This document shows, in pieces, positions 35,855 to 57,768 of a DNA stretch of 64,000 nt. The translations under genes were made by a program, and so were the position numbers. The DNA comes from Dehalococcoidia bacterium (GTDB lineage Bacteria > Chloroflexota > Dehalococcoidia > GIF9 > AB-539-J10), in assembly GCA_030615625.1 (NCBI GenBank), contig JAUWYX010000002.1, forward strand, positions 185,918 through 249,917, read 5' to 3'. Position 1 is the first letter of the stretch; each line of letters starts with the position of its first letter. The notes beneath the pieces were generated by a model, which saw only the letters and a program-made list of their open reading frames with translations, did not search any database and was not told the origin of the DNA.

Positions 35855-36740
35855 TATTTTTCCCTTCTATATTCATTTGTAGGGGCGGGGCTTGTCCCCG
35901 CCCGCTTTTTGTCATTGTGAGCACCTGAAAGGTGCGTGGCAATCTCCGGGGATTGCTTCGGCACTATCGTGCCTCGCGAGGGACGGGATTCCTTCACACC
36001 TCGAAGGGAGACCCCACCCCGCCAGGCGGGGATGAACCCCGCCACTACACCCCCGACCGTAGGGGCGGGTCTTGTACCCGCCCACATTGTCCCCGCCTAT
36101 AAAGCTGAGATAAACTCCGCCACTACATCAATTTGTACCAGCACCCCACCCATAAGGCGAGGATAAACCTCGCCACTACATAATTATCTATTTGTTTGTT
36201 TAACGTTGTAGGGGCGGGTCTTGTACCCGCCCGCTTTTTGTCATTGTGAGCTCCTGAAAGGTTCGTGGCAATCTGCGTGGATTGCTTCGGCACTACCGGG
36301 CCCCGCGGGGGACGGGATCCCTTCACACCTCGAAGGGAGACCACACCCCGCCAGGCGGGGATAAACCCCGCCACTACACTCATTTGTAGGGGCGGGTCTT
36401 GTACCCGCCCACATTGTCCCCACCCATGAGGCGGGGATGAACTCCGCCACTACACTCATTTGTAGGGGCGGGTCTTGTACCCACCCACATTGTCCCCACC
36501 CATGAGGCGGGGATAAACCCCGCCACTACACTCATTTGTAGGGGCGGGCCTTGTACCCACCCTAATTTTGAATCCCAAACAATGTCAAATCAAGCCCAAA
36601 ACCCTAAGCAATGCCAAATGACAAAGTTCAAAACTCAAATAAGAAGAAAGGGCAGTTTTGGCATTTAAGCATACGGATTTCAATTGTTATTTGAATTTTG
36701 ACATTTGAGTTTTGTAGTGGCGGGGATGAATTCCACCACT
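35855..36740. repeat. Largest repeat cluster: duplicated ~175-bp composite units plus 75-bp tandem units
   Basis: Composite units at about 35873-36050 and about 36203-36380. The 75-bp unit CTCATTTGTAGGGGCGGGTCTTGTACCCGCCCACATTGTCCCCACCCATGAGGCGGGGATGAACTCCGCCACTACA occurs at 36381-36455 and 36456-30, with a partial copy at 36531-36565. An AT-rich palindromic unit spans 36565-36720. Confidence 0.85.
35883..35910 (+). terminator. Intrinsic terminator after livM formed by a repeat unit
   Basis: GGGCGGGG-CTTGT-CCCCGCCC is followed by GCTTTTT. Confidence 0.6.
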
Positions 36741-40149: not shown

Positions 40150-40335
40150 AAGCTTTTTGTCATTGTGAGCCCTTCACTTTTTTGTCATTGCGAGCCCCTT
40201 ATTTTTTGTCATTGCGAGCGAAGCGTGGCAATCTCTGGGATTGCTTCGGCACTATCGTGCCTCGCAACGACAAAAGGAAAATGTCATTCTGAGCCGCAGG
40301 CGGGGATAAACTCCGCCATTACACTCCTTCACCGG
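40150..40335. repeat. Intergenic repeat cluster (tandem TTTTTGTCATTGCGAGCCC units)
   Basis: Three head-to-tail tgtcattg(t/c)gagc units, followed by gaagcgtggcaatctctgggattgcttcggcactatcgtgcctcgcaacgaca. Confidence 0.85.
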
Positions 40336-41659: not shown

Positions 41660-42130
41660 GAGGGCAACTCTATTTCTCTCTTCTACATTGATTTGCAGGG
41701 GCGGGGCTTGTCCCCGCTCTCTCTTTTTGTCAGCCAGCCCTTCCTTTTTCGTCATTGCGAGCCCTTCACTTTCTTGTCATTGCCAGCCCTTTACTTTCTC
41801 GTCATTGCGAGCGAAGCGTGGCAATCCCATTGGCTAAATTCTAAATCCCAACAAAGTCAAATATTAAAATGGAAAAGGCAAAATGACAGAGCAAAAATTT
41901 AAAATAGCTAACTGAGAACACCTGGACCTTTAGTTTTGAACTTTGATTTGTAATTTTGAGTTTTTACCTTTGAATTTTAATATTGTCCCGGCTTTGCCGA
42001 GGATGCCCGATGAAATCGGCAAATTGTCATTTGGATTTTGACATTTGAGTCTGTTCATGGTTCCTGTCGTGCCAGGGATTGCCTCGGCTGACTTCGTCAG
42101 CCTCGCAAAGACAGAAGGGGTACCATTGCC
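41660..42130. repeat. Intergenic repeat mosaic
   Basis: tcgtcattgcgagccc units, gaagcgtggcaatccc, an AT-rich palindromic block at 41830-42060, and gattgcctcggctgacttcgtcagcctcgcaaagaca. Confidence 0.8.
41698..41729 (+). terminator. Possible intrinsic terminator after the thiolase gene (repeat-derived)
   Basis: GCGGGG-CTTGT-CCCCGC is followed by TCTCTCTTTTTGT. The preceding ~40 nt are homologous to 35850-35880. Confidence 0.45.
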
Positions 42131-42304: not shown

Positions 42305-42825
42305 AAAGGGTCCTCCTGTTGACTGGCAAGCCAGGCACAGGTAAAACTGCTCTCATCAAAGAAGCCCTGGCCAGGACCAAAGTCAAGGGGGGCGGCTTCT
42401 ATACTGAGGAGATACGGACTGGGGGAATAAGGCAGGGGTTCAGGATTGTTACCCTCGACGGTCGGGAGGCGATATTAGCCCATGTCGGCATCTCCAGCCC
42501 CTACCAGGTAAGCAAATACAGGGTGGACACGGATAGCCTGAACAGAGTTGGAGTTTCTGTTCTGCGCCAGGCGCTGAAAGAAACCGATTTGATAGTCATT
42601 GATGAGATTGGCAAGATGGAGCTCTTGTCGCCCCAGTTCAAGGAAGCCGTGACGCAAGCAATAAACAGTGGCAAAAAAGTTTTGGGCACTATTATGCTCA
42701 ACCCCCATCCCTTCGCCGACGAAATCAAACGCCGTCCTGAAGTCGAAACGCTCCTGGTAACCAGAGATAACCGCACTGAGGTAATGAAGAAAGTCCTAGA
42801 CTGGCTAACGGCAGAGGTGAACTGA
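42301..42825 (+). CDS. Nucleoside-triphosphatase, COG1618/THEP1-like
   Basis: 174 aa with P-loop GKPGTGKT and Walker B-like LIVIDEIGKME. Confidence 0.7.
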   Translation: MKRVLLLTGKPGTGKTALIKEALARTKVKGGGFYTEEIRTGGIRQGFRIVTLDGREAILAHVGISSPYQVSKYRVDTDSLNRVGVSVLRQALKETDLIVIDEIGKMELLSPQFKEAVTQAINSGKKVLGTIMLNPHPFADEIKRRPEVETLLVTRDNRTEVMKKVLDWLTAEVN

Positions 42826-42994: not shown

Positions 42995-43135
42995 GAAATG
43001 CTCGCCAAGGATTTTCGGACCTCTTAGCGACAAATACTGATAAGCCTTTAACAACATAATATTGTTCCGATGACATAGAGGGCACTAAACTGCCACCTGT
43101 ATATGGTCACTTGGGTGGCGGGGAGCCAATAGTGA

Positions 43136-43166
43136 AACCGACCTAGAAATGGTCGGTTTTTGTTTT
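43136..43166 (+). terminator. Intrinsic terminator 25 nt upstream of the DUF5658-like ORF
   Basis: AACCGACC-TAGAAAT-GGTCGGTT is followed by TTTTTGTTTT. Confidence 0.7.
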
Positions 43167-43541: not shown

Positions 43542-43610
43542 ACAAGGGCACCGGGATCACAAAATCGTCAGAAAAGTGCAATCCCCTTTCGAGGATTAAG
43601 CTCTTTCCGG

Positions 43611-43645
43611 TGTAGGCCTGATTGGTATGGTGTCCTTGGAATTCC
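43611..43645 (-). repeat. X repeat copy A (tRNA acceptor-end-like scar)
   Basis: TGTAGGCCTGATTGGTATGGTGTCCTTGGAATTC directly abuts the second 113-bp copy. Confidence 0.7.
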
Positions 43646-43756
43646 GACGAAATCAAACGCCGTCCTGAAGTCGAAACGCTCCTGGTAACCAGAGATAACC
43701 GCACTGAGGTAATGAAGAAAGTCCTAGACTGGCTAACGGCAGAGGTGAACTGAAGC
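43644..43756 (+). repeat. 113-bp direct repeat, copy 2 (orphan duplicate of the NTPase 3' end)
   Basis: Identical to 42716-42828 and followed by CCCTGCTCAGAAAGCAGCCG, the anticodon-arm-like piece of the R2 repeat. Confidence 0.9.
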
Positions 43757-43953
43757 CCCTGCTCAGAAAGCAGCCGTTTTGCCGGGAGCCATGCTTGATG
43801 GTGACGGGCGAGTCCGATGAGTGGACAGATGATGATGAGGGCGCTCTGCACCCGCTCCCTGCCGCTGAACAGTACGCCAGAAAGTGCAGTGGGGCGAGAG
43901 AGTTTTAGTAAGGCGAGTGCCTGGCCCCGACATTATGAAAATGCAGGACGCAG

Positions 43954-45159
43954 CTAATCCGTTGTCTGGCTTGGCTTGTAAACAAAGGAGACCACCAGCA
44001 ACGCGATGCCACCGGCGATAAATCCAATGCCGAGCCATTGAAGTGGAGCCAGAAGATTGACCAGTACCTGCGATGCCCAGACCTGTAGTTGTGGGGGCGC
44101 AGCAAACATTGCTTGCAATATCTGCTCACCGCCAACATTCTTACCAATCAGTGCGACAGCCAGCACAACAAGTCCAGATGCCAGGAACACTATGCCCAGC
44201 GTGCGCGTTGACCCTTTTACATTGCGGTAGATGAGCACAATACCCGCTATAAGCAGCGCGCTGACGACAATACTGAGAATATATGCAAGCCGGACATAGC
44301 CGACATATTCTCTTACCTTGCTGAGGACTGTTTCCACTGTTGATGTAAACGAAGCAATCTGCAAGGGCGCGTCTTCGCCAATCACCGTCTCGTCAATCTG
44401 GAATGGCGTCGGTAGCATTTCCTCGGAGAATTCAGCCCAAAATGCATCAAATGCCTGCTCCAGCTCTTCAGGTGGCAGCCCTTCCAGTTCATCAGGGGGA
44501 AAATCCAAAAAGATTCCTAGCAGCATTCCCCTCAGGCCATCTATCAGGGGTTCGAGGGAGATGGTAATGCTGAAGCTCTCTACTTCTCCCGCCAGATAAT
44601 CTGCTATCGGACCGGCGGCGTATTTTACTTGCTCTTTTATCCACGGTTCCAGGTCTGTCAGCAGTTCCTCAAAGCCGGCAACCAGATGAGGGAATGCTTC
44701 TTTGGGTAATGGAAATTCCTGCAAGATTTCCTCTCCAAATACTTCCCAGATTATCCTGGCCAGCTGCGGACCATCCATTGTATCTATGACAGCGACAATC
44801 GAATCCGAATTGAGGAGAGTGAGCCGCAGTAAATTCGCTAACTCGGGGTTCTCCCGCTCGCCATGCAGATACTCATAAACAGAATAGACTATGGTATTAA
44901 GTTTGCCTTTAAGATGCGGTTCCAGCGCGGTGATTGTTTCTGTCAGGGAGCCAAGGGCTTCTTCCGAAAGTTCCTCTTGCAACATCTGACTCATTGCTTC
45001 GCTAGCAAGCGGGGCTATTTCCAACCTGTCGCCTTCAGCGGTAACAAAATCGGGGTTGAGTGCGGTCCGGTTGAGCGAAAATGCCAGACCAAATGCGATC
45101 AGGGAGATGAAGAGAATAAAACTTAGTATAATCAGTCCCGCTATCTTTAGTCCTCTCAT
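43954..45159 (-). CDS. Hypothetical membrane protein (N-terminal TM, acidic helical ectodomain, C-terminal multi-TM)
   Basis: Start trimmed to MRGLKIAGL (ATG 45159) after AAGGAG. No family was recognised. Confidence 0.5.
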   Translation of the reverse strand: MRGLKIAGLIILSFILFISLIAFGLAFSLNRTALNPDFVTAEGDRLEIAPLASEAMSQMLQEELSEEALGSLTETITALEPHLKGKLNTIVYSVYEYLHGERENPELANLLRLTLLNSDSIVAVIDTMDGPQLARIIWEVFGEEILQEFPLPKEAFPHLVAGFEELLTDLEPWIKEQVKYAAGPIADYLAGEVESFSITISLEPLIDGLRGMLLGIFLDFPPDELEGLPPEELEQAFDAFWAEFSEEMLPTPFQIDETVIGEDAPLQIASFTSTVETVLSKVREYVGYVRLAYILSIVVSALLIAGIVLIYRNVKGSTRTLGIVFLASGLVVLAVALIGKNVGGEQILQAMFAAPPQLQVWASQVLVNLLAPLQWLGIGFIAGGIALLVVSFVYKPSQTTD

Positions 45160-45347
45160 TAAAATATAACTCCTTGGCTTTTTATTCCAACCCGCACGTA
45201 GCAATAATCCTGGTCACGGCCTGTGCCGCCAAGCATAACCACGCTCTGCAAATATGTCAAGACCGACAAGCATTATTCTAAATTGCCCGTCGTTGATGCA
45301 CAATACATCGGATTGTTCACTTTGCCATGGTATTCTGGGAAAATAAT

Positions 45348-45405
45348 ACCTGGTTTGTAGTAAGCCTAATCCTTCACAAGGTGAAGGATGGTGTCCCTGG
45401 AATTC
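45348..45405 (-). repeat. X repeat copy B (with CCTTCAC-AA-GGTGAAGG hairpin insert)
   Basis: ACCTGGTTTGTAGTAAGCCTAATCCTTCACAAGGTGAAGGATGGTGTCCCTGGAATTC. Confidence 0.75.
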
Positions 45406-45460
45406 GCCCGGTCAGAAAACCGTACCTGTTCTTCCATACGTGCTACTTTAGGTACTCCAG

Positions 45461-45883
45461 CTATTCGATTTCAAAGGTTATATTCTTTAGCTTGTGGTAA
45501 TAGTTACCCTTATGAGCTGTAAAACAGAGCACTGAATAGTCCGGGTCTTCCACACCGAGGGGATAGTATCTTTCATCCCCATCACTCCAGAGCATCTGCC
45601 TTGATTTCAGGTCTTGGAGAATCTGTATGGTTCCGGTTAACATCAATCCTTTAAAGTCTTTGTCATCAACATAATAAACGCATGCCCGGTTATCCTTTTT
45701 TAATTGTTGCACCCTTTTAGAAGAGGTATTGGTGCTGAACCATATCTTATTGATCCCCTCATGTTTAGCATTCATCATGGCTTTGATATTGGGGAACCCG
45801 TCTTCTCCGTTTGTACCGAGCAGGCAAATGTTTGACCTCTCAATAAGTTGTAATCCCTCTGCCAAAGCTTCCTGCTTGTCCAT
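45461..45883 (-). CDS. Pyridoxamine 5'-phosphate oxidase-family (general stress protein 26-like) protein
   Basis: 140 aa. The pattern LGTNGEDGFPNIKAMM...IWFSTNTSSKRVQQLKKDNRACVYY. Confidence 0.6.
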   Translation of the reverse strand: MDKQEALAEGLQLIERSNICLLGTNGEDGFPNIKAMMNAKHEGINKIWFSTNTSSKRVQQLKKDNRACVYYVDDKDFKGLMLTGTIQILQDLKSRQMLWSDGDERYYPLGVEDPDYSVLCFTAHKGNYYHKLKNITFEIE

Positions 45884-45884
45884 A

Positions 45885-46013
45885 TTAGACCCTTCCTGTC
45901 TTTAACATTTCTTTTTTGGATTTTTGCTCGTATTCAACCAGATTTATATCAAAGTCATCTCTCAGAGTCTGCTCAAAAGCTTCTAGTAGACTCCTTTTCC
46001 TATCTATTGTCAT
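45885..46013 (-). CDS. Unlisted 42-aa ORF immediately upstream of the PNPOx-like gene
   Basis: MTIDRKRSLLEAFEQTLRDDFDINLVEYEQKSKKEMLKTGRV, with RBS AAGGAG. Its stop lies 1 nt before the next ATG. Confidence 0.3.
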   Translation of the reverse strand: MTIDRKRSLLEAFEQTLRDDFDINLVEYEQKSKKEMLKTGRV

Positions 46014-46138
46014 CCTGCTCTCCTTTACCTTGCGTTACTTCCATAATACCACGCAACACAGTAAGCGACAATGTTGCCGCTCCATTAAGCAAAACTAGAA
46101 GGAGATCAGAGACAGTATCTGTAGACTGAACAAGAAAC

Positions 46139-46275
46139 CATATTGTCACCTGATATTCTTACCCACTTAGAAAAGCAGTTGCCCCGGCTTTGTGGCGTCC
46201 CTGGAGGGATTCGAAACGCCGACCTCTCGCTTGGAAAGCAGCCGCTAGCTATCTCTTCCGCTGAACACTACGCTG
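46139..46275 (-). repeat. R2 repeat copy 1 with degenerate tRNA-like 3' part (46193-46252)
   Basis: CCATATTGTCACCTGATATTC...TGGCGTCCCTGGAGGGATTCGAAACGCC...GGAAAGCAGCCGC...GCCGCTGAACACTACGC. Confidence 0.7.
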
Positions 46276-46301
46276 TTTCTTTGTGGTTCTGGGGATGTGA
46301 T

Positions 46302-46359
46302 ATCTGATTTGTAGCAGGCCTGATCCTTCACAAGGTGAAGGATGGTGCCCCTGGAATTC
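46302..46359 (-). repeat. X repeat copy C (with hairpin insert)
   Basis: ATCTGATTTGTAGCAGGCCTGATCCTTCACAAGGTGAAGGATGGTGCCCCTGGAATTC. Confidence 0.75.
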
Positions 46360-46622
46360 AGGAGTAACATTCCGCTATTTCGTGCAATACTTCGCGGGGG
46401 CTAAGGTAACAACCTGAGTTTCTTTGCAATTCAGCAAATTGCATAAAAGTCAGAATCGTGTACTGGCAGCTCACCGTTTGACCCACGATGCCAGAAAATG
46501 CAATTGTGAGCGATCATTGACTTTAGTAAAGGTACATCTTATTCTTCTGTAAAGGGCTCGAGGTGTATTGACAGCAAAAACTTGATGGTGGCAGACTTAA
46601 CGCTTGGAACTTGGAATAATTA

Positions 46623-47564
46623 ATGAAGAACATAGCCATTACAGGCATCTCAGGATATATTGGTACTAGGCTCCTGTCCCAGCTTGACACTATCGATAGT
46701 ATTCAGAAGATCATTGGAATTGATATTAGGCAACCAACATTCAGACCCCCAAAGCTTAAATTCTACCTTCAGGACGTACTCAAGCCGTTTAGTGACCTTT
46801 TTATTGAGAACGAAGTCGATACTGCTATACATTTAGCATTCGTATTAAAGCCCACTCGCGAAAGGACATCAGTTCAGAAGATCGATGTCGAAGGTACAAT
46901 AAACTTCGTACGAGCATGCCGACAAGCCAAAGTTGGGCATGCCCTGTACCTGAGCAGTCATACCGTCTACGGCGCACATCATGATAACCCAATTCCACTT
47001 ACCGAGGACTCACCACTGCGACCATTACCTGGTTTCCAGTACTCGTGGGATAAAGCTCAAGCTGAACAAATCATCCGTGATTTTGATCAATCTCAACGTG
47101 ATGTCACTATCACCATCTTGCGCTGCTGTCCGGTAATCGGACCACACGCAGCTGGTTCTGTGCCCGTCCTCATGTTCAAGCCACCCGTAATGATTGGTGT
47201 GGCAGGTTTCGATCCCAGAATGCAATTTGTCCATGAATATGATCTGATACAAGTGATTGAAACCTTCCTGAATCAAAAGAAGAGGGGCATCTTCAATGTG
47301 GCTGGCGAAAGAGATCTCAGATATAGTGAAGTCGCTAAACTAGCAAGGAAAAAATTGCTGAGGCTGCCCGATAGTTTGATTAAGCCTTTGATGCATATAT
47401 CTTGGGCGCTGCATTTGCAGAACGATTCCCCGTATAGTGGCCTTGAGTTCATAAAGTACCCACCCGTAGTAAGCACAGGGAAACTACTGAAGGAGACAGG
47501 ATTCAGGTTTCAGTACTCCACTGAGGAGGCATTATCATCCTTCGTATCCACTCTAAGGAATTGA
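46623..47564 (+). CDS. NAD-dependent epimerase/dehydratase (extended SDR)
   Basis: Rossmann motif TGISGYIG and catalytic YSWDK. Confidence 0.75.
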   Translation: MKNIAITGISGYIGTRLLSQLDTIDSIQKIIGIDIRQPTFRPPKLKFYLQDVLKPFSDLFIENEVDTAIHLAFVLKPTRERTSVQKIDVEGTINFVRACRQAKVGHALYLSSHTVYGAHHDNPIPLTEDSPLRPLPGFQYSWDKAQAEQIIRDFDQSQRDVTITILRCCPVIGPHAAGSVPVLMFKPPVMIGVAGFDPRMQFVHEYDLIQVIETFLNQKKRGIFNVAGERDLRYSEVAKLARKKLLRLPDSLIKPLMHISWALHLQNDSPYSGLEFIKYPPVVSTGKLLKETGFRFQYSTEEALSSFVSTLRN

Positions 47565-47600
47565 TGAGACTTACTGAACAAAACGTCATGTGGACATAAT

Positions 47601-47645
47601 GCCTGATTTATAGCAGGCCTGATTGGTATGGTGTCCCTGGAATTC
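47601..47645 (-). repeat. X repeat copy D
   Basis: GCCTGATTTATAGCAGGCCTGATTGGTATGGTGTCCCTGGAATTC. Confidence 0.75.
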
Positions 47646-47795
47646 CGTGCCTGGTGGTAACTGGCAAGTCCGATGAATGACCAGTTCTGTGATAGATGCT
47701 AAGGGCATCATCAAAGGTAAGAGACTTTGAATACTTATCACCTATGTATCTGAAGTAGCTATGTCTTCAGATTTCTAGTCTCTTGAATTATTAGT

Positions 47796-48524
47796 CTATA
47801 ACTGTCTTCTAGGTTTCCTCTTGACTTTTTTCATGCCTAGCCCTGTAAAGAATGAGTGCCGTTTTTCACAGGCGCGGCATTTGCCACACACACTGCCATT
47901 TGTCGGGTAATAGCAACTCCATGTCATGTTCTTTAGTAGAGAGAAAACATCGAGTGAATGTGCTATTTCTATGAGTTTGTTCACACTAACACGTCCCTTC
48001 TGATTTTTGGGTATTAAGGGTGTGACCACCTCGACCGGCTGACTCATCACCTGCAATAGCTTATTCAATGCATTAACAAAACTAATGGATGTATCATAGA
48101 ACTCATTAAGAAATCCTGTAATTAGCTCAATATGACCTTTTAGCTGTAATATTGCCCGCTCAGACATAATTACAGATAGAGCACAGGAAATAAGAACCAT
48201 ATTTCGATTTTCAACATCAGTTTGTCCAGATTTCGGCCTACCCTTGAGAAGGGCTGACTGACTCCATGGGAAAAAATCGATGTCCGAACTTCTAATCTTA
48301 AAGATCTTGCACTCTTCCACTTGTGTGTCTAGATGCTTCTGCTTCCCAAACTCACGGAGCTTTGGAACCAGTTGCAGCACAGCTCTAGTTTCCTCATTTA
48401 GCGCCTTCTGCCCATAGTCAAAGAATATCGGTATAATTTTCACGGGTTCATTTCCTGACACAGTCTTTAGTATTGCCAAGGTTGAGTCCAACCCTCCTGA
48501 GAATAGGCTATAACAATGCCTCAT
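47796..48524 (-). CDS. QueC-like PP-loop ATPase (7-cyano-7-deazaguanine synthase family, divergent)
   Basis: PP-loop FSGGLDST, FDYGQK, ENRNMVLISCA, and the C-terminal four-Cys zinc motif SCYYPTNGSVCGKCRACEKR. RBS AAGGAGG. Confidence 0.7.
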   Translation of the reverse strand: MRHCYSLFSGGLDSTLAILKTVSGNEPVKIIPIFFDYGQKALNEETRAVLQLVPKLREFGKQKHLDTQVEECKIFKIRSSDIDFFPWSQSALLKGRPKSGQTDVENRNMVLISCALSVIMSERAILQLKGHIELITGFLNEFYDTSISFVNALNKLLQVMSQPVEVVTPLIPKNQKGRVSVNKLIEIAHSLDVFSLLKNMTWSCYYPTNGSVCGKCRACEKRHSFFTGLGMKKVKRKPRRQL

Positions 48525-48653
48525 TTCTTCGCCTCCTTAGGTATTCTTTGGTCGATTGTCCTACCTCATTAGATTGAGATGCTTCTCACTTACTCAAGTA
48601 GCTACAATCAGAAATACGATTAGACTATCGACTAATAGCCCGATTGGATACAC

Positions 48654-49322
48654 CTAGACACTAGTCAATCTATCAATATAGTTGCACCATTGGCAGTTAG
48701 GGGAGGCTTCAGGTGCTTCAGATAATTCAAGCACATCCAGTACTTCATCTATGAACTCTAAGAAGCTTTGCTCGTTCTTTTCTACTTCAATCCAAGTGAT
48801 TTCAGCCTCATAAGAAAGGCGTTCAATGCATTGCTGGCTGATAGTTGAAGGATAGAAATATAGCAACCCTAACCTCGTAATAGGCGATAGGGCTAGAGCA
48901 TTAGGAGCAGGATGTTCTAGAGAATAAGCATATGCATGCAATTGACGACCATAAAGGCTACTCCACTCCATATTTGGATTACCAGTCTTGAAGTCTATAA
49001 CACCATAGGTTGCATCTTCAAAACTAACAGCGATGTCAAATCTTCCACTAAGATAACAAGTGGCACTATGATTTGGTAACTGTATGACTTCCGATCTTAC
49101 CCACTGTTCACCATAACTCACAATGCCAGGAGGTAGAGCAATATGTAGTTCACTTGTATGCTTGCCATCATAGTAGTTTTTCAATAGACTTGCAATCTGG
49201 CTAAAGATAGAGGGCAAGGGAATAGATGGTTGGGATATACCATTAATCATTCTCCAATAAAAGCAACGCTTGCACCTATCATATAGAAACGTGAGGTCTG
49301 ATGGGCTTAGTCTAAAGTTCAT
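48654..49322 (-). CDS. PD-(D/E)XK nuclease, Cas4/RecB-like with terminal Cys pairs
   Basis: GRFDIA...GVIDFKTG (D...D-x-K), QLHAYAY (QxxxY), an N-terminal CKRC and a C-terminal CQWC. Confidence 0.6.
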   Translation of the reverse strand: MNFRLSPSDLTFLYDRCKRCFYWRMINGISQPSIPLPSIFSQIASLLKNYYDGKHTSELHIALPPGIVSYGEQWVRSEVIQLPNHSATCYLSGRFDIAVSFEDATYGVIDFKTGNPNMEWSSLYGRQLHAYAYSLEHPAPNALALSPITRLGLLYFYPSTISQQCIERLSYEAEITWIEVEKNEQSFLEFIDEVLDVLELSEAPEASPNCQWCNYIDRLTSV

Positions 49323-49533
49323 TGAGAATCATCCTCTTGTTGTGATTAGTCTACCATGTCACTCATGCCAAGAATATCTAGAAATCCGACGATATAATTT
49401 GCATATTCCCAACTTTCTCGTGAATTCGACATCCTAGGTATCCATTTCAGCTTATACTAAACATATGCTATCTATATAATACCGCTTTCTAAGGCACTAT
49501 TAAACCCTGTGAAGGGTATTCCGGGGACATGAT

Positions 49534-49577
49534 ACCTGATTTGTAGTAGGCCTGATTGGCATGGTGTCCCTGGAATT
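49534..49577 (-). repeat. X repeat copy E
   Basis: ACCTGATTTGTAGTAGGCCTGATTGGCATGGTGTCCCTGGAATT. Confidence 0.75.
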
Positions 49578-49694
49578 GTACAAGACGGGGCTGACTGGGT
49601 TCTACTTCCCCCCCCTAGTAATGTAACATTCCGTCACAATGTGCAAGTTACTTCAACCGACAATGCAGTTACCACTACCTGTGCTTTATATATT

Positions 49695-49733
49695 TTGACA
49701 AAATTTGACAAAATCTGACGCATAATTTATAAT
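49695..49733 (+). promoter_or_regulatory. Consensus promoter with tandem TTGACAAAA boxes; near-leaderless start of the kinase gene
   Basis: TTGACAAAA occurs twice (49695 and 49705). The second TTGACA is followed by a 17-nt spacer and TATAAT (49728-49733). The ATG at 49742 lies only 8 nt after the -10. Confidence 0.55.
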
Positions 49734-49741
49734 ATCTGAAA

Positions 49742-50848
49742 ATGGAAGAAACAAAGATAGCTGAACTGCTTACTATAAACGAAGCAGCAAGAAAGATGCA
49801 TGTTACAAGACAGACTATTTATGCGTGGATAAGTAGCGGAAGGATTTTGCCTGTAACTACACCGGGGGGAAGACTTAGGATACCAGAGGAGCAGTTGATA
49901 TTGGAAACACCACAAATTAATGAAAGGGGAAACAATGGAGTTTTCAATATTTATGATATTTCTGTTGTTGAACCAATTCAGGATGAACAAATGGGAACCA
50001 AACGGAAATTCTGGTTTGAAATTGAAGGTTCTCGATTCTGGTTTAAATTTGGCAGAGACAACACCGGTGATAACTGGGCCGAGAAAGTGGCAAGTGAATT
50101 ATGTGAACTTATTGGATTACCCCATGCGGAATATGAGTTAGCAGTATGGAGAAAAGCAAAAGGAGTAGTAAGTCCAACGTTCGTTCCGGTTGGAGCTCAG
50201 CTTAGACCTGGGAATGAATTATTGGCTAGAATAATGCGTGGATATGAGATAAAGAAATATTATAAACAAAGAAAACACACTTTGAGATTAGTGATGACAG
50301 TAATGGAAAACAAAGAAATTAAGTTGCCAATTGATTGGTCAGGTTTGGACGGCATTCATTCGGCAGCCGATGTTTTTGTCGGCTATCTCATGCTAGATGC
50401 ATGGATTGCAAATCAAGATAGACATCATGAGAACTGGGCTCATATAGTAGTGCCGGAGGATGGAACTAGAAGTGTGCATTTGGCTCCCTCATACGATCAT
50501 GCATCTAGCTTCGGAAGTAATGAGACAGATGCTAATAGGAAATCGAGATTAACTACGAGAGATACTGGGCGAAGCATGGAAAAATATGTTGAAAGGGCAA
50601 GATCAGCATTTTATTTGACGCCAAATAGTAGTAAACCGTTGTCAACTATTGATGCCTTTCAAAAAGCAGCAAACAGAAGGCCAGAGGCTGCACGGTTATG
50701 GCTTAAGCAACTGGAGGGGATATCTTCATCAGACACACGATCAATATTTGAACGAATACCAAAAACAGAGATAACAGAGGTAGGTATAGAATTCACCCAG
50801 AGAATACTTGGCTTAAATAGCGAAAGACTACTGAAGTTAAGAACATAA
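49742..50848 (+). CDS. Excisionase-type HTH fused to a HipA-like Ser/Thr kinase catalytic domain
   Basis: HTH LLTINEAARKMHVTRQTIYAWISSGRILPV..GGRLRIP. Kinase blocks GTKRKFWF, WAEKVASELCELIGL, IANQDRHHENWAHIV (catalytic loop) and LAPSYDHASS. Confidence 0.75.
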   Translation: MEETKIAELLTINEAARKMHVTRQTIYAWISSGRILPVTTPGGRLRIPEEQLILETPQINERGNNGVFNIYDISVVEPIQDEQMGTKRKFWFEIEGSRFWFKFGRDNTGDNWAEKVASELCELIGLPHAEYELAVWRKAKGVVSPTFVPVGAQLRPGNELLARIMRGYEIKKYYKQRKHTLRLVMTVMENKEIKLPIDWSGLDGIHSAADVFVGYLMLDAWIANQDRHHENWAHIVVPEDGTRSVHLAPSYDHASSFGSNETDANRKSRLTTRDTGRSMEKYVERARSAFYLTPNSSKPLSTIDAFQKAANRRPEAARLWLKQLEGISSSDTRSIFERIPKTEITEVGIEFTQRILGLNSERLLKLRT

Positions 50849-50869
50849 GGTTAAGAGAGGTGAAATATA

Positions 50870-52114
50870 ATGAAGGTGAATGAATTGTATTTGGCTTGGG
50901 AAGATCCGATTGAGCGCAGATGGATGCCAGTAGGTCGGCTAACAATTGACGATAACAATATGCATAAATTTGTATATACAAAAGGAGCTAAGAGTTCTAG
51001 AAACTTCGAACCTTTTGCAAGAATGGAGAAGCTTGATGAAGTGTATAGATCAGAAACTCTATTTCCTTTATTCAACAATCGTCTTTTGTCAGAGTCAAGG
51101 CCAGAACACAATAACTATATGGAGTGGTTGGATATTAAGGACAACGAATATGATGCTTTCACGATGCTCGCGATTACCGGAGGCATCAGGGGCACAGATA
51201 CATTCGAAGTATTTCAATGTCCTAAGCCAAATGATGAAGGAAAATACGAGGTTAAGTTTCTTAGTCACGGATTGCGGCATTTACCTAGACATGCTATTGA
51301 GAGGGTGAACAGTTTTCATAAGGGTGATAGGTTGTTCATTTTACCTGATATTCAGAATAGCTATGATACAATGGCGCTAGGATTGCGCACGGACGACCCG
51401 GTTGAGTGGGTAGGATATTGTCCACGTTATCTTAGTCCAGATTTTTATGAACTGCTGGAAAAATCCAGAACTATGGACATCAAAGTTTCTGTTGAAAGGG
51501 TTAACGTAGATGCACCCCTTCACCTACGTTTGCTCTGTAAAATGGTTGCTCCTTGGCCAGAGGGTTTTGAACCGTGTTCTGGTGAAGAGTTCAAGCCGTT
51601 AGTTGAATATGATTGTGGGTTAACGCCCCTTCCTAAAATTGAGACCCCTGTGAAAGCTACAGAGGTCTCGCACAGCAGTCTCGTGGGGGACTTGAGTAGT
51701 GTAGGTGGCTATGATGATAGCCGTAGCAACTCAAAAAAGTCAAGCGGTATGGTCGATTACCTCCCCAAGGGACGAGTTCTTGGGAGTAATGAAAAACTGA
51801 TGAACAACACACGTTATGGTCGTAGGCAAGAACATAAGGTGGCTCGCCAATTAAGGGGTCATGGTGCTAAAGTCTCGATGAGCCCTGGCAGCAGAGGAGC
51901 TGCTGACCTCAAAGTGCGTTTTCACTCTGGAAGATCCTGGAACGTGCAGGTTAAATCTTCTAGGTCTAGAACAGCAGCATCTCCATCCGCCAAGGAATTA
52001 GGACGCCTTAAAATTAGTGCCAACAGAAGCGCTGCCACGCCTGTTATTGCAGAGGTGACTCCAAAGGGTATTTCTTACAGGTCAGCTCGTTCTAGAAAGA
52101 AACTAAACCCTTAG
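50870..52114 (+). CDS. Three-part fusion: HipA-N/HipS-like domain + HIRAN domain + Hjc/Mrr-like PD-(D/E)XK nuclease domain
   Basis: The N-terminal LFPLFNNRLLSE...FTMLAITGGIRGTDTFEV resembles the HipA N-terminal subdomain. KGDRLFILPDIQNSYDTMALGL...WVGYCPRYLSPDFYELL is HIRAN-like. The C-terminal GRRQEHKVARQLRGHGAKVS..GSRGAADLKV...NVQVKSS aligns with the Hjc/Mrr E...D...QxK core. Confidence 0.6.
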   Translation: MKVNELYLAWEDPIERRWMPVGRLTIDDNNMHKFVYTKGAKSSRNFEPFARMEKLDEVYRSETLFPLFNNRLLSESRPEHNNYMEWLDIKDNEYDAFTMLAITGGIRGTDTFEVFQCPKPNDEGKYEVKFLSHGLRHLPRHAIERVNSFHKGDRLFILPDIQNSYDTMALGLRTDDPVEWVGYCPRYLSPDFYELLEKSRTMDIKVSVERVNVDAPLHLRLLCKMVAPWPEGFEPCSGEEFKPLVEYDCGLTPLPKIETPVKATEVSHSSLVGDLSSVGGYDDSRSNSKKSSGMVDYLPKGRVLGSNEKLMNNTRYGRRQEHKVARQLRGHGAKVSMSPGSRGAADLKVRFHSGRSWNVQVKSSRSRTAASPSAKELGRLKISANRSAATPVIAEVTPKGISYRSARSRKKLNP

Positions 52115-52276
52115 GTACAGACTAACCTATTGGATAGATTGGATAGAATAGGGTCAAGACATTCAAGCCTTGGCCTTATTTTATTGAGATTTTCCACACC
52201 CGGCAAATCGACAGACTTATGGGTGGCAGCAATTTTGTGCCTTCTCAGGATGACCTTGTTAGCAAGATAACGAAAA

Positions 52277-52414
52277 GCCATATTGTTACCTGATATTCTC
52301 GCTTACGTGGAAAAGTAATTGCCCTGGCTGGCGTTGTGGAGTCCCTGGAGGGATTCGAACCCACGACCCGCTGCTCAGAAAGCAGCCGCTATCTACCTCT
52401 GCGGCTCGATAATC
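52277..52414 (-). repeat. R2 repeat copy 2 including the best tRNA-like fragment and a 22-bp copy of the ADH 3' end
   Basis: GCCATATTGTTACCTGATATTCTCGC...TGGAGTCCCTGGAGGGATTCGAACCC...GCTGCTCAGAAAGCAGC...CTACCTCTGCGGCTCGATAATC (52393-52414). Confidence 0.8.
52337..52393 (-). other. tRNA-Arg(UCU)-like 3' fragment (anticodon arm to CCA), not an intact tRNA
   Basis: The minus strand reads GCTGC-TTTCTGA-GCAGC, GGGTC, GTGGG-TTCGAAT-CCCTC, CAGGGAC-T-CCA. There is no complementary 5' acceptor strand and one T-stem mismatch. Confidence 0.6.
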
Positions 52415-52418
52415 TCCA

Positions 52419-52877
52419 TCATATCAAATGCATCCACTCTTCAATCAACTTGAAGGATAGAGAATTAGGATCTCGCAATGGTGAAATGGTATCAGTCATA
52501 GTTATTTGTTGCCAGGATTTAGCATTAGTTACAAAATCCGCATAGTATCTTACAGCTTTTACCTTCCGAAAATGCCTAAACCAAATCCCAAGCTTGGGAT
52601 CTTTTGACCGCACATAGTTATACTTACCAGAAACAGTAGCCAAAGCAAAGGGAAAATGGTGAGCAATGATAAGAACGACATCGTCAACCTTCATTTCGTG
52701 GGCGAATGCCCAGTAGTCTCGTTCATATTCAGGTAGTTTTTCTTGAGCTGTTTTCATTAGATCACCAATGTCGTACTCAAAGTCCAAACCAATGTAACCG
52801 GCAGCAAGGCTTTCAACGCAGTGCTTTACTGCCTCACTGGGTTTGGCTGGATGAAGCTGCATTCTCCAATAAGTCAT
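52419..52877 (-). CDS. Hypothetical 152-aa protein (single-gene module)
   Basis: MTYWRMQLHPAKPSEAVKHCVESLAAGYIGLDF... No family was recognised confidently. Confidence 0.45.
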   Translation of the reverse strand: MTYWRMQLHPAKPSEAVKHCVESLAAGYIGLDFEYDIGDLMKTAQEKLPEYERDYWAFAHEMKVDDVVLIIAHHFPFALATVSGKYNYVRSKDPKLGIWFRHFRKVKAVRYYADFVTNAKSWQQITMTDTISPLRDPNSLSFKLIEEWMHLI

Positions 52878-52995
52878 TTTATTCCTCCAGTTGTTCGTAT
52901 TAACAGAAGCAACTAGCTCCAGCTACACAAAATGGTAGAACCAGTGTTTATACTAATAATTATAACATCCTCTTGTTATCAAAAGTGCACATTAA

Positions 52996-53081
52996 GCCAG
53001 ATTGTTACCTGATATTCTCGCTTACTTGGAAGACAGCCGCTACCTACCTCTGCGGCTCGATAATCACTTTTAGAGAGTCCT
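52996..53081 (-). repeat. R2 repeat copy 3 (tRNA part deleted) plus 38-bp copy of the ADH 3' end
   Basis: GCCAGATTGTTACCTGATATTCTCGCTTACTTGGAAGACAGCCGC. 53044-53081 matches 55149-55186 with one mismatch. Confidence 0.8.
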
Positions 53082-53085
53082 CAAC

Positions 53086-53300
53086 AAAACTCAAAAATTA
53101 AAGGTCAAAAATCAAAATGACAACTCAAAACGCAAAATTTGAACAAACCCAAATATCAAAATCCAAATGTCTAAATGCCAACCCGACTTGTCTTTGTCAT
53201 TTGAGCTCTGTAATTTGACATTATTTAGGATTTGGTCAAGAGATTGCTTCGGCTTCTCCTCGCAATGACAAATAGAAGTAGCCTGTTTCCGCCAGCCCCA
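53086..53300. repeat. Genome-type intergenic repeats inside the island
   Basis: AAAACTCAAAAATTAAAGGTCAAAAATCAAAATGACAACTCAAAA resembles 28335-28380. gagattgcttcggcttctcctcgcaatgacaa belongs to the CGCAATGACA family. Confidence 0.7.
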
Positions 53301-53438
53301 GCCGAAACTTTGCTCCATAAGTGCCACTTGCTCTAAAAGTATTTGTCCTATTTTTGTTTCTTCAATAGGATGGGCTGAAAGAGAACGCTATCCTTCCCAT
53401 CAACTTGGTAGGGTAGAATGTCAACCACTACACGTCTC

Positions 53439-54341
53439 TCATTCATAATCACAGGATCGCCTTTTCTTAATTGCATTACGCGGAAGAGGCGGTGACAAGG
53501 CATACTCTACGGAATCACAGACCGGTTTGAATCCAATCTTTAGATATATAGAATTAGATGTAGGGTTGTTTAAATCTGTATAGAGCGTGCAGAAGTCGTA
53601 ACCACTTTTCAGTATATCCCGGCAGACACCGGCTACGCAGGCTGTAGCATAACCATTTCGGCGGAGTTCCGGTGGTGTATAAACAAGGGTAATTGACATA
53701 CCATGTTCAGTCGGGCGATCTTTCATCACCATAGAGACAGGTTCTTCCGAGTATTCCCACAGATAAATTAGACACTTTCCAATAAATGGAGTAACGTCGC
53801 GTTCGGGTATATTCTGGTTTATTGGACTTCCCACTTCCAACATAAAAGAACGGGTCCATGCAGATGCCAAATCTTTATCTGCCAACGTTGCCAGTCGCAT
53901 ATGACCGGGTATGGAAGAAATGTTATTTACAGAATCAAGACGGTAGATACGCTGTGCCATTGTTGATTTTATAGAGGTTCCAAAATTCTTACACCATCTA
54001 TCCGCAAAGGGGTCTGTTACTTCTCTATGCCCGGCAACCCCCGGTATTTCTGCCCAGCGGCTGTGGACGGCTGCAATCAACGGTAAAACAGCTTTTTCCG
54101 GGTCACCGGCATGCCAAGCCAGACCGACTGGATATGGCGGAGTCCTCCAGGTGAGTGCACTGATACCGTTATTGTCATTCACCGTACAGAACAACGGATC
54201 TTCTTCTCCGTAGTGGTGTGGATTAGCATCCACTAACCGGGCAATACCATAAATGAGACCGTAACGAGCTTCGTCAGAACGAAGCAGGTCACCGGTTTTC
54301 CTAAGGAAATCCGCAGCATCTGAGCAAATTTTAACTTCCAT
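53439..54341 (-). CDS. GNAT-family N-acetyltransferase (two-domain, 300 aa)
   Basis: The C-terminal block LVYTPPELRRNGYATACVAGVCRDIL...TLYTDLNNPTSNSIYLKIGF is the acetyl-CoA binding core. Confidence 0.7.
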   Translation of the reverse strand: MEVKICSDAADFLRKTGDLLRSDEARYGLIYGIARLVDANPHHYGEEDPLFCTVNDNNGISALTWRTPPYPVGLAWHAGDPEKAVLPLIAAVHSRWAEIPGVAGHREVTDPFADRWCKNFGTSIKSTMAQRIYRLDSVNNISSIPGHMRLATLADKDLASAWTRSFMLEVGSPINQNIPERDVTPFIGKCLIYLWEYSEEPVSMVMKDRPTEHGMSITLVYTPPELRRNGYATACVAGVCRDILKSGYDFCTLYTDLNNPTSNSIYLKIGFKPVCDSVEYALSPPLPRNAIKKRRSCDYE

Positions 54342-54432
54342 GCACCCAAATTATAGTATAGCAGGTCAATATAGAACACTTTACACTGATAGCTAATGTG
54401 GAGAATATAATCCATGGTGGAAGAAGGCGAGC

Positions 54433-54569
54433 AGCCTCTATCAATTCGAGCGCTGCGGCATAATCCACCGGGCTGCCACCATAGGAGCTGGTGAGCGTTA
54501 TCTCGTTACGCCAGAACCAGTCCTTCACCGATATAGGAAGGCTAACGCCCGGCTCTGTGGGAGCAAAGA
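54433..54569 (-). pseudogene. Internal fragment copy of the alcohol dehydrogenase gene
   Basis: 54433-54569 aligns with 55272-55408 (FWRNEITLTSSYGGSP.DYAAALELI). The listed ORF 54331..54528 is this fragment. Confidence 0.8.
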
Positions 54570-54580
54570 CTGACGCCTTA

Positions 54581-54904
54581 TTAGCTCCACTCTACTGTGG
54601 GCATTGTCCTGTATGCTGTTATTCTGGGCGTCCCCGTCACAGATGTTCTGGCTCGCCGAAGCAATGCTAGTGTTCCCTTCGACCCCACCCATGTCCTCCA
54701 GTTTTCCATCGTCTCCCACGTGCTTATCATTACGCCGACAGACTCATCCCCCTCGCTGACGAGAAACTCAGCGGTAATGAAGCCCGGATGTTGCATGGCA
54801 CACGACCTGAGCTGCGTCAATATGGGTTCTACGTTCTTATAATCCAACACCTTGTATCCTATGATACCTTTTATCATGCCGTTTTTTTTCACTATCGCTT
54901 GCAT
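54581..54904 (-). CDS. Antibiotic-biosynthesis-monooxygenase (ABM/Dabb) domain protein
   Basis: 107 aa with the ferredoxin-like pattern GFITAEFLVSEGDESVGVMISTWETMENWRTW. Confidence 0.55.
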   Translation of the reverse strand: MQAIVKKNGMIKGIIGYKVLDYKNVEPILTQLRSCAMQHPGFITAEFLVSEGDESVGVMISTWETMENWRTWVGSKGTLALLRRARTSVTGTPRITAYRTMPTVEWS

Positions 54905-55100
54905 TTTCCTTCCCTTTCATGCTTCAGGCTATCTCAATGTGTCCATATACCCTGCCGACATGCAGCCTCTCGAAAGCCTCGGCATCATGACCAATAGCTC
55001 TCTGAACCAACATAGCCTCATCTGATGTTTGTCCTTCAAAACGGTTCTGGTTCACCCAATCGCCTTCTTTAACAAATAAGCCGCTGAAATGTTACAGAAA

Positions 55101-55148
55101 GCCATATTGTTACCTGATATTCTCGCCTGCTTAGAAAGCAGCCGCTAT
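55101..55148 (-). repeat. R2 repeat copy 4, abutting the stop codon of the alcohol dehydrogenase gene
   Basis: GCCATATTGTTACCTGATATTCTCGCCTGCTTAGAAAGCAGCCGCTAT. Only the anticodon-arm piece is kept (loop TTTCTAA on the minus strand). Confidence 0.8.
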
Positions 55149-56177
55149 CTACCTCTGGGGCTCGATAATCACTTTTAGAGAGTCCTGAGCCTGGGCCACA
55201 AGCTGAAATCCCAGGCCTGTTTCCGCCAGCCCCAGCCGGTGGGTAATCATCTCCCGCACACGTTTTTTGCCAGCCTGTATCAGTTCCAGTGCCGCGGCAT
55301 AATCCCCGGGGCTGCCACCATAGGAGCTGGTAAGCGTTATCTCATTGCGCCAGAACAGGTCGTTCACTGATATCGGAATGCTAACGCCCGGCTCTGTGGG
55401 GGCAAAGAAGAGAACAGTGCCTCCCCGCTCCACCGACTCCAATACCTGAGCTATAGCTGATGTCGCCCCGCTGCATATCACGACAAGGTCAGCGAGACGA
55501 CCATCGGCTACCTGACGTAGATAAGTTGGGGTATATTCCTTAGCGTGAATGGCAATATCGGCTCCAAATTTTCGCGCTGCCTCCAGGCGATAATCAACGA
55601 TGTCCGTCGCTATAATGTAACTGGCACCTGAAGTCCGAGCTAGTTGTATATGGAGCAGCCCGGCAACGCCGCTGCCGACAACGAGCACACTTTGCCCTGA
55701 CTGTAGATGAGCTAATCTTTGCCCGCGCAGGACGCAAGCCAGCGGCTCAATAAAGGTCGCTTCCTCAAAAGATACTTCGTCAGGCAAGGGAAATATGCCC
55801 TGGTCGACATTGATGCTTGGCAGCCGCACATATTCAGCAAAGCCACCGGGGTCGAAATTCGTCTGGCGCAGGGTATCGCAAACGGTGTGGTGTCCACCAA
55901 GACAATAGTGGCACGTGTTGCAGGGGACATGATGAGCGGCACAAATCCGATCACCCACTTTACAATGTTCCACCCCCTTCCCGACAGCAACAACCACGCC
56001 GGCAACTTCATGACCCAGGACTAAAGGTGCTTTGTGCAGGCGATACCATTCCAGCAAATCGGTGCCACAGATGCCGCTGGCCTCCACCCGCATCAGTACC
56101 TCGCCGGGGCCAATCTGCGGCGTGGGCATCTCCTCCAGCCGCACATCCTGGTTACTGTAATACATAGCTACACGCAT
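55149..56177 (-). CDS. Zinc-dependent medium-chain alcohol/threonine/sorbitol dehydrogenase
   Basis: GHEVAGVV, the structural zinc Cys cluster CNTCHYCLGGHHTVC, and Rossmann motif VVGSGVAGL. Confidence 0.85.
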   Translation of the reverse strand: MRVAMYYSNQDVRLEEMPTPQIGPGEVLMRVEASGICGTDLLEWYRLHKAPLVLGHEVAGVVVAVGKGVEHCKVGDRICAAHHVPCNTCHYCLGGHHTVCDTLRQTNFDPGGFAEYVRLPSINVDQGIFPLPDEVSFEEATFIEPLACVLRGQRLAHLQSGQSVLVVGSGVAGLLHIQLARTSGASYIIATDIVDYRLEAARKFGADIAIHAKEYTPTYLRQVADGRLADLVVICSGATSAIAQVLESVERGGTVLFFAPTEPGVSIPISVNDLFWRNEITLTSSYGGSPGDYAAALELIQAGKKRVREMITHRLGLAETGLGFQLVAQAQDSLKVIIEPQR

Positions 56178-57645: not shown

Positions 57646-57768
57646 CTTTTTGGTAACTCTAGCGGAGTGGAACCACCCGTTCCCATCCCGAACACGGAAG
57701 TGAAACTCTCCAGCGCAGACGATACTTGAGGGGCAACCTTCCGGGAAAATATGTCGTTGCCAGGAAGC
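57646..57768 (+). rRNA. rrf: 5S ribosomal RNA (stand-alone)
   Basis: The CCACCCGTTCCCATCCCGAACACGGAAGTGAAAC loop B/C signature. Helix I pairs CTTTTTGGTAAC with GTTGCCAGGAAG. The flanking GAGAGC/GCTCTC extension is followed by ATTTTT. Confidence 0.9.

Follow-up and report, generated by a model that had tools for sequence, protein, structure and literature searches.

Recent work on two anti-phage systems has shown that enzymes of the QueC family attach a deazaguanine base to proteins there, and its authors predicted the existence of further members repurposed in this way. Known substrates of these protein ligases bear a Met-Gly-(Gly/Thr)-Ser N-terminus, which in the partner of Cap9, the ligase of type IV CBASS, reads Met-Gly-Gly-Ser; in the Cap9-CdnD structure an Asp, an aromatic residue and an Arg contact the deazaguanine. 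The published signature of canonical QueC comprises the PP-loop, YxQxHxxE, VPxRN, YPDC and C(x)8CxxCxxC with an essential Tyr, and the E. coli enzyme requires Y35, R99, Y131 (with partial activity for Phe) and Y189, the Arg being the only residue of VPxRN proven essential (PMC13329287). We analysed a 64,000-nt stretch of a Dehalococcoidia bacterium genome (contig JAUWYX010000002.1, positions 185,918 to 249,917; hereafter the window) in which a QueC-like PP-loop ATPase is encoded beside a Cas4/RecB-like PD-(D/E)XK nuclease. Each gene occurs without the other in related genomes, and we therefore regard them as neighbours and not as a proven two-gene defence system. The reading that we favour, with some reserve, is that the two are separate units, which one Chloroflexota lineage has joined into one repeat-bounded cassette, and that the QueC-like protein activates a deazaguanine carboxylate. 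What is of interest here is a rare, solo, island-borne QueC-family clade whose predicted deazaguanine-activating site is nearly intact, together with the repeat-delimited array that carries it.

Along its whole length the QueC-like protein aligns with the Pfam QueC family (79.6 bits, cut-off 22; E = 3e-22), and it is also matched by the PADLOC QueC profile (E = 8e-18), but it scores half or less of both QueC equivalog cut-offs (73.7 against 150.3 for TIGR00364, 48 against 378 for NF008317). This bears out the view of an earlier note on this DNA that the protein is not a standard QueC and that its central region has diverged. Both open reading frames (ORFs) and every motif which that note quoted are present, and the motifs are invariant among the homologues (29 QueC-like, 20 nuclease). 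In the 29 members of the QueC-like clade the invariant positions include S9, G10, G11, D13 and S14 of the PP-loop SGGLDS (residues 9-14; SGGxDST across the clade), Y37 and Q39 of Y37-G-Q39, E45, R107, N108, D144 and the zinc site C204(x8)C213xxC216xxC219, with Y205 after the first Cys. Fold, length, zinc site and substrate residues resemble those of canonical QueC (PF06508 cluster 1; PDB 3BL5, 2PG3). In the clade YxQxHxxE becomes Y37-G-Q39-K-A-x-x-x-E45, with the His changed to Ala or another residue and a YxQ(x)5E spacing; YPDC becomes F142-Y143-D144-T145, with the Asp and the aromatic residue kept and the Cys changed to Thr in every member; and at the VPxRN position the VP is replaced, by (I/V)E in the comparison with QueC, the clade reading (V/I/L)ENRN. 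When the profile is aligned to QueC, ENRN falls opposite VPGRN and FYDT opposite YPDC. The clade has in addition an invariant FxWSxS motif of its own, within a loop-rich insertion, and its close members end in a basic, Lys/Arg-rich C-terminal tail. The AlphaFold2 model is confident (mean pLDDT 91.2, pTM 0.89), and the closest solved folds found by Foldseek are 3bl5 and 2pg3, both QueC (E ~2e-9, best 1.6e-9), then Cap9 (9nto_B, 1.2e-7, TM-score 0.76 normalised to target) and QatC (9y01_B, 2e-4).

These similarities would suit a working, horizontally acquired preQ0 synthase that supplies tRNA queuosine or archaeosine, or precursor salvage, and has no role in defence. Each of the four residues essential in E. 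coli QueC has a counterpart in the QueC-like protein, the PP-loop and the zinc site are canonical, the best structural matches are QueC itself, and the array around the gene also holds metabolic cargo. We nevertheless consider this explanation unlikely. The equivalog scores lie well under both cut-offs, no member retains either the His of YxQxHxxE or the Cys of YPDC, FxWSxS is peculiar to the clade, and the genes next to it are mostly defence genes. No queD, queE, folE or tgt-like gene occurs in the 64-kb window; probes taken from ~70 canonical-QueC loci and read by sequence motifs as QueD, QueE, FolE, QueF-like, DpdA and Gat matched nothing else of the pathway there (E < 1e-6), in agreement with the earlier remark that no other deazaguanine-pathway gene is nearby.

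The distribution of the clade is also extremely rare and patchy. When 1.84 billion representatives were searched exhaustively with a profile, only 25 QueC-like clusters reached E <= 1e-30, an upper bound for the clade; ~13 of them form the core, with a sister tier that carries the same motifs; canonical QueC starts at ~1e-29 and weaker. Members occur in Dehalococcoidia and Bathyarchaeia. Scans with exact peptide patterns found four loci in 185,579 species genomes (one in Dehalococcoidia, three in Bathyarchaeia) and, in metagenomes, at least two further loci beside canonical QueC. Two members are decayed: one on a viral or prophage contig has an in-frame stop (L055, 5986-6645; loci are numbered L001 onwards), and another is frameshifted and shortened (L048, 3595-3911), which is consistent with dispensable accessory genes. 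Defence neighbours, lower G+C content, patchy distribution and these decayed copies suggest that the role of the QueC-like protein is accessory and probably linked to defence, rather than housekeeping preQ0 synthesis. A phage origin was rejected, as 2.9 million viral contigs hold one clade member, with an internal stop, and zero copies of the nuclease. We found no description in the literature of the QueC-like clade, of its pairing with the nuclease or of the repeats that bound them.

Cap9 (PDB 9NTO) shares with the clade the YxQ(x)5E spacing without His, a near-canonical active site, a defence-island setting, and the conserved Arg, aromatic residue and Asp that hold the deazaguanine, whose equivalents in the QueC-like protein are R107, an aromatic residue and D144. 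Cap9 is a minimal protein of ~185 aa with the motifs Y/FxQ(x)5E, RN and YxDC, whereas the QueC-like protein has 242 aa with an extra insertion, and of these motifs it has the YxQ(x)5E spacing and RN, with FYDT in place of YxDC. The sequence-profile match to Cap9 covers two stretches only. No CD-NTase, Cap10 or Cap11 lies near the QueC-like gene, and neither a CD-NTase nor a TGT-like family occurs in any of the annotated QueC-like neighbourhoods. A Met-Gly partner is likewise absent; the nuclease starts MNFRLSP, and other upstream proteins start MKSL, MYFI, MTYW and MSRP. QatC of QatABCD (PDB 9Y01/9Y02) is also a QueC-family PP-loop enzyme that serves anti-phage defence, but it is ~400 aa long, being extended at both its N- and its C-terminus, its active site is remodelled, and it is a much weaker structural match. 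QatA, QatB and QatD are absent here, and neither a KAP ATPase nor TatD was found among the annotated neighbours. By size, motifs and gene context the QueC-like protein is neither a Cap9 of type IV CBASS nor a QatC.

From these residues the QueC-like protein is most likely a stand-alone, ATP-dependent QueC-family enzyme that activates a deazaguanine carboxylate. It would bind ATP at the SGGxDS loop and a 7-deazaguanine carboxylate, most likely 7-carboxy-7-deazaguanine, through R107, F142/Y143 and D144. An acyl-adenylate would form, and the acyl group would then pass to an amine to give an amide. The acceptor could be ammonia, as for QueC, or another amine, as for Cap9 and QatC, and would not be a fixed neighbouring protein. 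The Cap9-type spacing without the His suggests that the reaction may stop at the amide, as in Cap9, and not proceed to the nitrile preQ0.

The nuclease appears, from its motifs and profile matches, to be an old and strongly constrained Cas4/RecB-like PD-(D/E)XK enzyme with a putative four-Cys metal site. It matches Pfam PDDEXK_1 (E = 8e-11), and PADLOC Cas4 profiles match along its full length more weakly (E = 4e-7). Without exception, the 20 aligned homologues retain GRFD (D96), D110-F-K112, Q127xxxY131, C17xxC20 and C210xxC213, so the nuclease motifs proposed from the sequence held up in alignment. In Cas4, one Cys is N-terminal and three are C-terminal. The nuclease shares with Cas4/RecB enzymes the D...D-x-K and QxxxY motifs and four Cys, but its Cys are arranged two and two, with a CxxC at each end; it scores under the Cas4 TIGR00372 cut-off (24 bits against 65) and lacks a cas or CRISPR context. 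A tandem-repeat scan found no CRISPR-like array, and cas genes were not among the annotated neighbours. The N-terminus MN(F/Y)(R/K)LSPSDLTF is equally conserved in homologues without a QueC-like neighbour. Against homologues of 71-73% protein identity dS (synonymous divergence) is saturated and dN/dS (the nonsynonymous to synonymous ratio) falls to 0.04, so that conservation of the nuclease is old and selective and does not reflect a recent sweep. The assignment was made from sequence and profiles, as the AlphaFold2 model is poor (pLDDT 51.7); PDB sequence and profile searches gave weak matches only and no close solved structure. Residues 3-42 (49197-49316; YKLSPSDLTFxYxxCKRCFY...PSIPLP) locally match the C-terminal part of the restriction endonuclease PvuII (PDB 3ksk, profile E = 2.9e-6), a match that may be spurious.

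The nuclease and QueC-like genes lie on the same strand in one unit bounded by two copies of a repeat, X3 and X4 (91% identical), which flank the pair as the earlier note had described (Table 1). The 129-nt spacer between them holds a strong ribosome-binding site, AAGGAGG, is ~85% conserved by eye against L001, and is 125-129 nt long across the copies of the pair. A sequence scan found no terminator-like site and no minus-strand promoter-like site in the spacer; the scan yielded no excess of sites over shuffled sequence. A relic X repeat within the spacer was rejected, its X-similarity score falling inside the shuffled null. Both genes have a G+C content below that of their flanks and are under purifying selection among close relatives (dN/dS 0.13-0.26).

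The description of the pair as a discrete module holds within one lineage. L001-L003 share the 1914-bp stretch at 47664-49577 (88% nucleotide identity), the homology ending exactly where X4 ends, and the unit recurs at 87% in L053. The adjoining cassettes are not the same: the window has PDC-M03, L001 an HD-CE three-gene set, and L053 a DndB-like protein with a methyltransferase, RelA_SpoT and PIN. The nuclease adjoins the QueC-like gene only where the QueC-like proteins are at least 81% identical (the window, L001-L003 and L053), and all copies of the pair are thus one lineage and one cassette met several times. Outside it the module is absent. Co-localisation in other genomes had been named beforehand as the test of the proposed pair, and the nuclease is present in 0/10 more distant QueC-like contexts (31-61% identity), with no tblastn match to it in any of these ten loci, while the QueC-like gene is present in 0/3 nuclease contexts picked irrespective of QueC. 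Of the latter, L013 has an 85% identical nuclease beside Hachiman HamA/HamB, L016 a nuclease homologue beside DUF3999 and an integrase, and L017 one between dnaN/polyketide-cyclase genes and methyltransferase genes.

The ten distant QueC-like genes have varied surroundings. In L042 (61% identity) an X repeat lies 26 nt upstream of the start codon, at the place expected for the nuclease, followed by a PCC-domain gene. Upstream of the gene in L005 (56%) are a methyltransferase (PADLOC MTase_II, 2.7e-134) and a specificity subunit, and in L043 (52%) a 231-aa protein with no family assigned, the QueC-like gene facing MzaB (4.8e-98). The L046 gene (47%) stands between DUF8426 and an EVE/NmeDI-like protein with a type IIG/DrmMI-like enzyme, and that of L009 (47%) is alone between a helix-turn-helix gene and a YopA-like gene. 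L020 (42%), from a Dehalococcoidia metagenome-assembled genome, and L021-L023 (31-37%), from Bathyarchaeia, lack the nuclease, and the decayed viral-contig copy in L055 (41%) adjoins SIR2. Most members neighbour defence genes (restriction-modification, Mza, SIR2 or PDC-M03, with HD-CE in L001), and an all-vs-all comparison of ORFs of at least 18 aa within 1.5 kb on each side of 13 QueC-like loci found no conserved partner ORF.

The pair lies in an array (43576-55170) whose G+C content is 0.43, against ~0.49 in the flanks, and which same-strand repeats split into cassettes of one to three genes. The X core motif occurs in five copies in the window, all on the plus strand, against 0.14 expected by chance, and the intact ones fold into hairpins, each with a ~13-bp stem (z about -3.1 to -3.7; X4, z = -3.4). 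The tRNA-like fragment of the Y repeat at 52348-52402(-) runs from D-arm to T-arm; its anticodon loop is Arg-UCU-like, and its score, 25.9 bits, is under the Rfam gathering score of 29; a second copy is at 46186-46262, and ARAGORN called no intact tRNA across the 64-kb window. The Z/X0 junction is also found in L001 (7014-7133) and L013 (9069-9233), so that the arrays of the window, L001 and L013 share a boundary repeat. We take these arrays as the same hotspot in related genomes, the comparison stopping at the junction, where L001 and L013 end. Read in the orientation of the nuclease, the window has the order PDC-M03 / X / nuclease, QueC-like / X / epimerase / X / PNPOx-like / X / membrane protein / Z-X0; L001 has HD-CE set / X / nuclease, QueC-like / Z / X0; and L013 has Y / HamA, HamB, nuclease / partial X / trypsin-CAP protein / Z-X0, where an X core, matching X over 21 nt, follows ~20-35 nt past the nuclease stop codon. 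The window, L001, L013 and L053 carry different cassettes, and homology is lost at the repeats. The nuclease is the sole gene common to the window, L001 and L013 arrays, and this, together with its old constraint, indicates that it is the long-standing resident and that the QueC-like gene came in next to it as cargo. The QueC-like gene is variable cargo, and its rare clade is usually solo in defence islands.

In these respects the array looks like an integron cassette array, including attC clusters without an integrase: the sites are imperfect palindromes of ~60 nt in one orientation, they cut the variable region into cassettes of one to three genes, content differs between relatives and homology breaks at the sites. 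It differs in that no attC R-box consensus was seen by inspection, the genes lie on both strands, the core shared by the repeats resembles the 3' end of a tRNA, and at one boundary a gene's 3' end is duplicated. By the last two features it looks more like repeated site-specific integration. No integrase or recombinase was found among ORFs of at least 120 aa at 38-59 kb (thiolase, NTPase, ADH, DeoC, ABC and similar). The array may be more novel than the pair itself, and it may explain the shuffling of defence genes in Dehalococcoidia.

Could the nuclease and the QueC-like enzyme nevertheless be a dedicated two-gene system for defence or DNA modification, in which the enzyme makes or attaches a deazaguanine derivative that controls or directs the nuclease? 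The same strand, the spacer without a terminator-like site, the strong ribosome-binding site, the X-bounded unit intact in three neighbourhoods, the shared purifying selection and the G+C content of both genes below that of their flanks would all fit, as would the precedent of CBASS type IV and Qat, in which partner proteins are modified by QueC-family enzymes. The position beside a known defence candidate also stands from the original proposal. We rate the two-gene explanation as rather improbable, however, and a general two-gene stand-alone system is most likely wrong, or at best lineage-specific. Co-occurrence is confined to one close lineage, L013 has the same Z/X0 boundary repeat and the nuclease without a QueC-like gene, the nuclease family is ~18-fold larger (1076 against 59 clusters in one database), and the window has no transglycosylase for DNA insertion. 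The nuclease lacks a Met-Gly start and its N-terminus is equally conserved without the QueC-like gene, which gives no support to the nuclease as a substrate. That the QueC-like enzyme is instead the constant part of a modular system swapping effectors between lineages is highly improbable: the candidates do vary (the nuclease in the window, SIR2 in L055, a 201-aa protein with an RNRIAH motif, read as HEPN-like, in L020, and 231-aa and 152-aa proteins of no known function directly upstream elsewhere), but several of these neighbours are not operonic, being divergent or having other ORFs in between, some belong to complete known systems (restriction-modification, Mza), L009, L022 and L042 show no candidate effector, and no neighbour has the Met-Gly N-terminus.

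Several observations weigh against our preferred reading of separate units with a deazaguanine-activating QueC-like enzyme. The canonical QueC signature is nearly complete and compatible with plain preQ0 synthesis. The sample comprises 13 dereplicated QueC-like contexts and three independent nuclease contexts, many on short contigs. The pair stays intact on the same strand in three different neighbourhoods, with a spacer of 125-129 nt that shows no terminator-like site, so co-transcription and functional coupling are possible within the lineage. A same-strand uncharacterised gene lies directly upstream of some homologues (231 aa in L043, DUF8426 in L046), as partner swapping would give. The array also holds non-defence cargo (epimerase, PNPOx-like protein, GNAT), and a defence role is thus inferred from association only.

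The QueC-like clade is a candidate for the predicted repurposing of QueC-family enzymes: it is rare, retains the residues for base binding and ATP activation, has no fixed partner and lives among defence genes of sediment bacteria and archaea. Identifying what it acylates would extend the chemistry of deazaguanine ligases, and the present result corrects a plausible yet unsupported call of a new two-gene system. A bolder proposal, to which we give little credence, is that the FxWSxS/ENRN clade represents a third, undescribed immune use of the QueC scaffold, solo or swapping partners, which would place a deazaguanine carboxylate onto a target encoded elsewhere (for example a protein of phage or host, or an amine on a nucleic acid) and would be carried as a cassette in a repeat-delimited, integron-like Dehalococcoidia array without a recognisable integrase.

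Table 1. Coordinates of the cassette array, its repeats and the genes discussed; positions refer to the window unless a locus is named.
Feature	Position	Strand	Description	Assigned from
X0 repeat	43576..43643	(+)	outermost X copy, followed by Z repeat	
Z repeat	43644-43742		~100-120 nt, adjoins X0; duplicates NTPase gene 3' end (42695-42814)	
X1 repeat	45333..45405	(+)	long form with internal palindrome	
Y repeat	46129..46262	(+)	with fragment resembling tRNA 3' end; core TGGnGTCCCTGGA in common with X	
X2 repeat	46287..46359	(+)	long form	
X3 repeat	47592..47644	(+)	boundary on QueC-like side of cassette	
QueC-like PP-loop ATPase	47796..48524	(-)	242 aa, member of rare QueC-family clade	ORF, profiles, alignment, AlphaFold2
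Spacer	48525..48653	(-)	129 nt, AAGGAGG just 5' of QueC-like ATG	
Cas4/RecB-like PD-(D/E)XK nuclease	48654..49322	(-)	222 aa, CxxC pair at each terminus	ORF, profiles, alignment
X4 repeat	49525..49577	(+)	boundary on nuclease side	
PDC-M03A + PDC-M03B	49742..52114	(+)	neighbouring cassette, outside the pair	PADLOC
Y repeat	52269..52414	(+)	long form	
DUF8426 gene	52419..52877	(-)	152 aa, separate cassette	
Y repeats, shorter copies	52994-53065, 55096-55170			
DUF8426 gene, L046	5488-5946			
DUF8426 region, L048	3064-3741			

The HipA-like module noted earlier next to the pair is PADLOC PDC-M03. Its two components are adjacent (PDC-M03A, E = 1.9e-116; PDC-M03B, E = 6.1e-91) and form a complete candidate defence pair. 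PDC-M03A is an excisionase-type helix-turn-helix fused to a HipA-like kinase, and PDC-M03B combines a Couple_hipA-like N-terminus with a HIRAN-like region and a C-terminus that is REase-like. A promoter-like site, a perfect TTGACA-17-TATAAT, lies at 49705-49733.

DUF8426 was considered as the true partner of the QueC-like gene. A homologue 81% identical to that of the window is directly upstream of the QueC-like gene in L046, and in L048/L049 DUF8426 is upstream of a frameshifted QueC-like pseudogene. We rejected it because the family has >690 clusters and occurs without the QueC-like gene in Acidobacteriia. The 120 best-scoring clusters of the family are all at least 63% identical, Acidobacteriia included, and no function is assigned to it.

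Elsewhere in the window, the interval from the NTPase gene to X0 contains a c-di-GMP-II riboswitch aptamer (43069-43151, plus strand, 57.1 bits, over the gathering score). No plus-strand gene is evident downstream of it, and the first long ORF beyond it lies on the opposite strand. A 5S rRNA gene (57649-57765, plus strand, 94 bits) lies between a DeoC-like aldolase gene and an ABC transporter gene; no 23S or 16S rRNA matched in the window. Another dispersed repeat family is formed by a 24-25-nt unit, TTTTTGTCATTGCGAGCCCCTCAC, in short tandem arrays at 2128-2197, 40154-40219 and 41736-41812. A 76-nt unit is repeated 2.8 times at 36353-36562 (95% identity), and a 120-nt unit is repeated 6.9 times at 32214-33042, probably as coding repeats within the ORF at 31996-33504.

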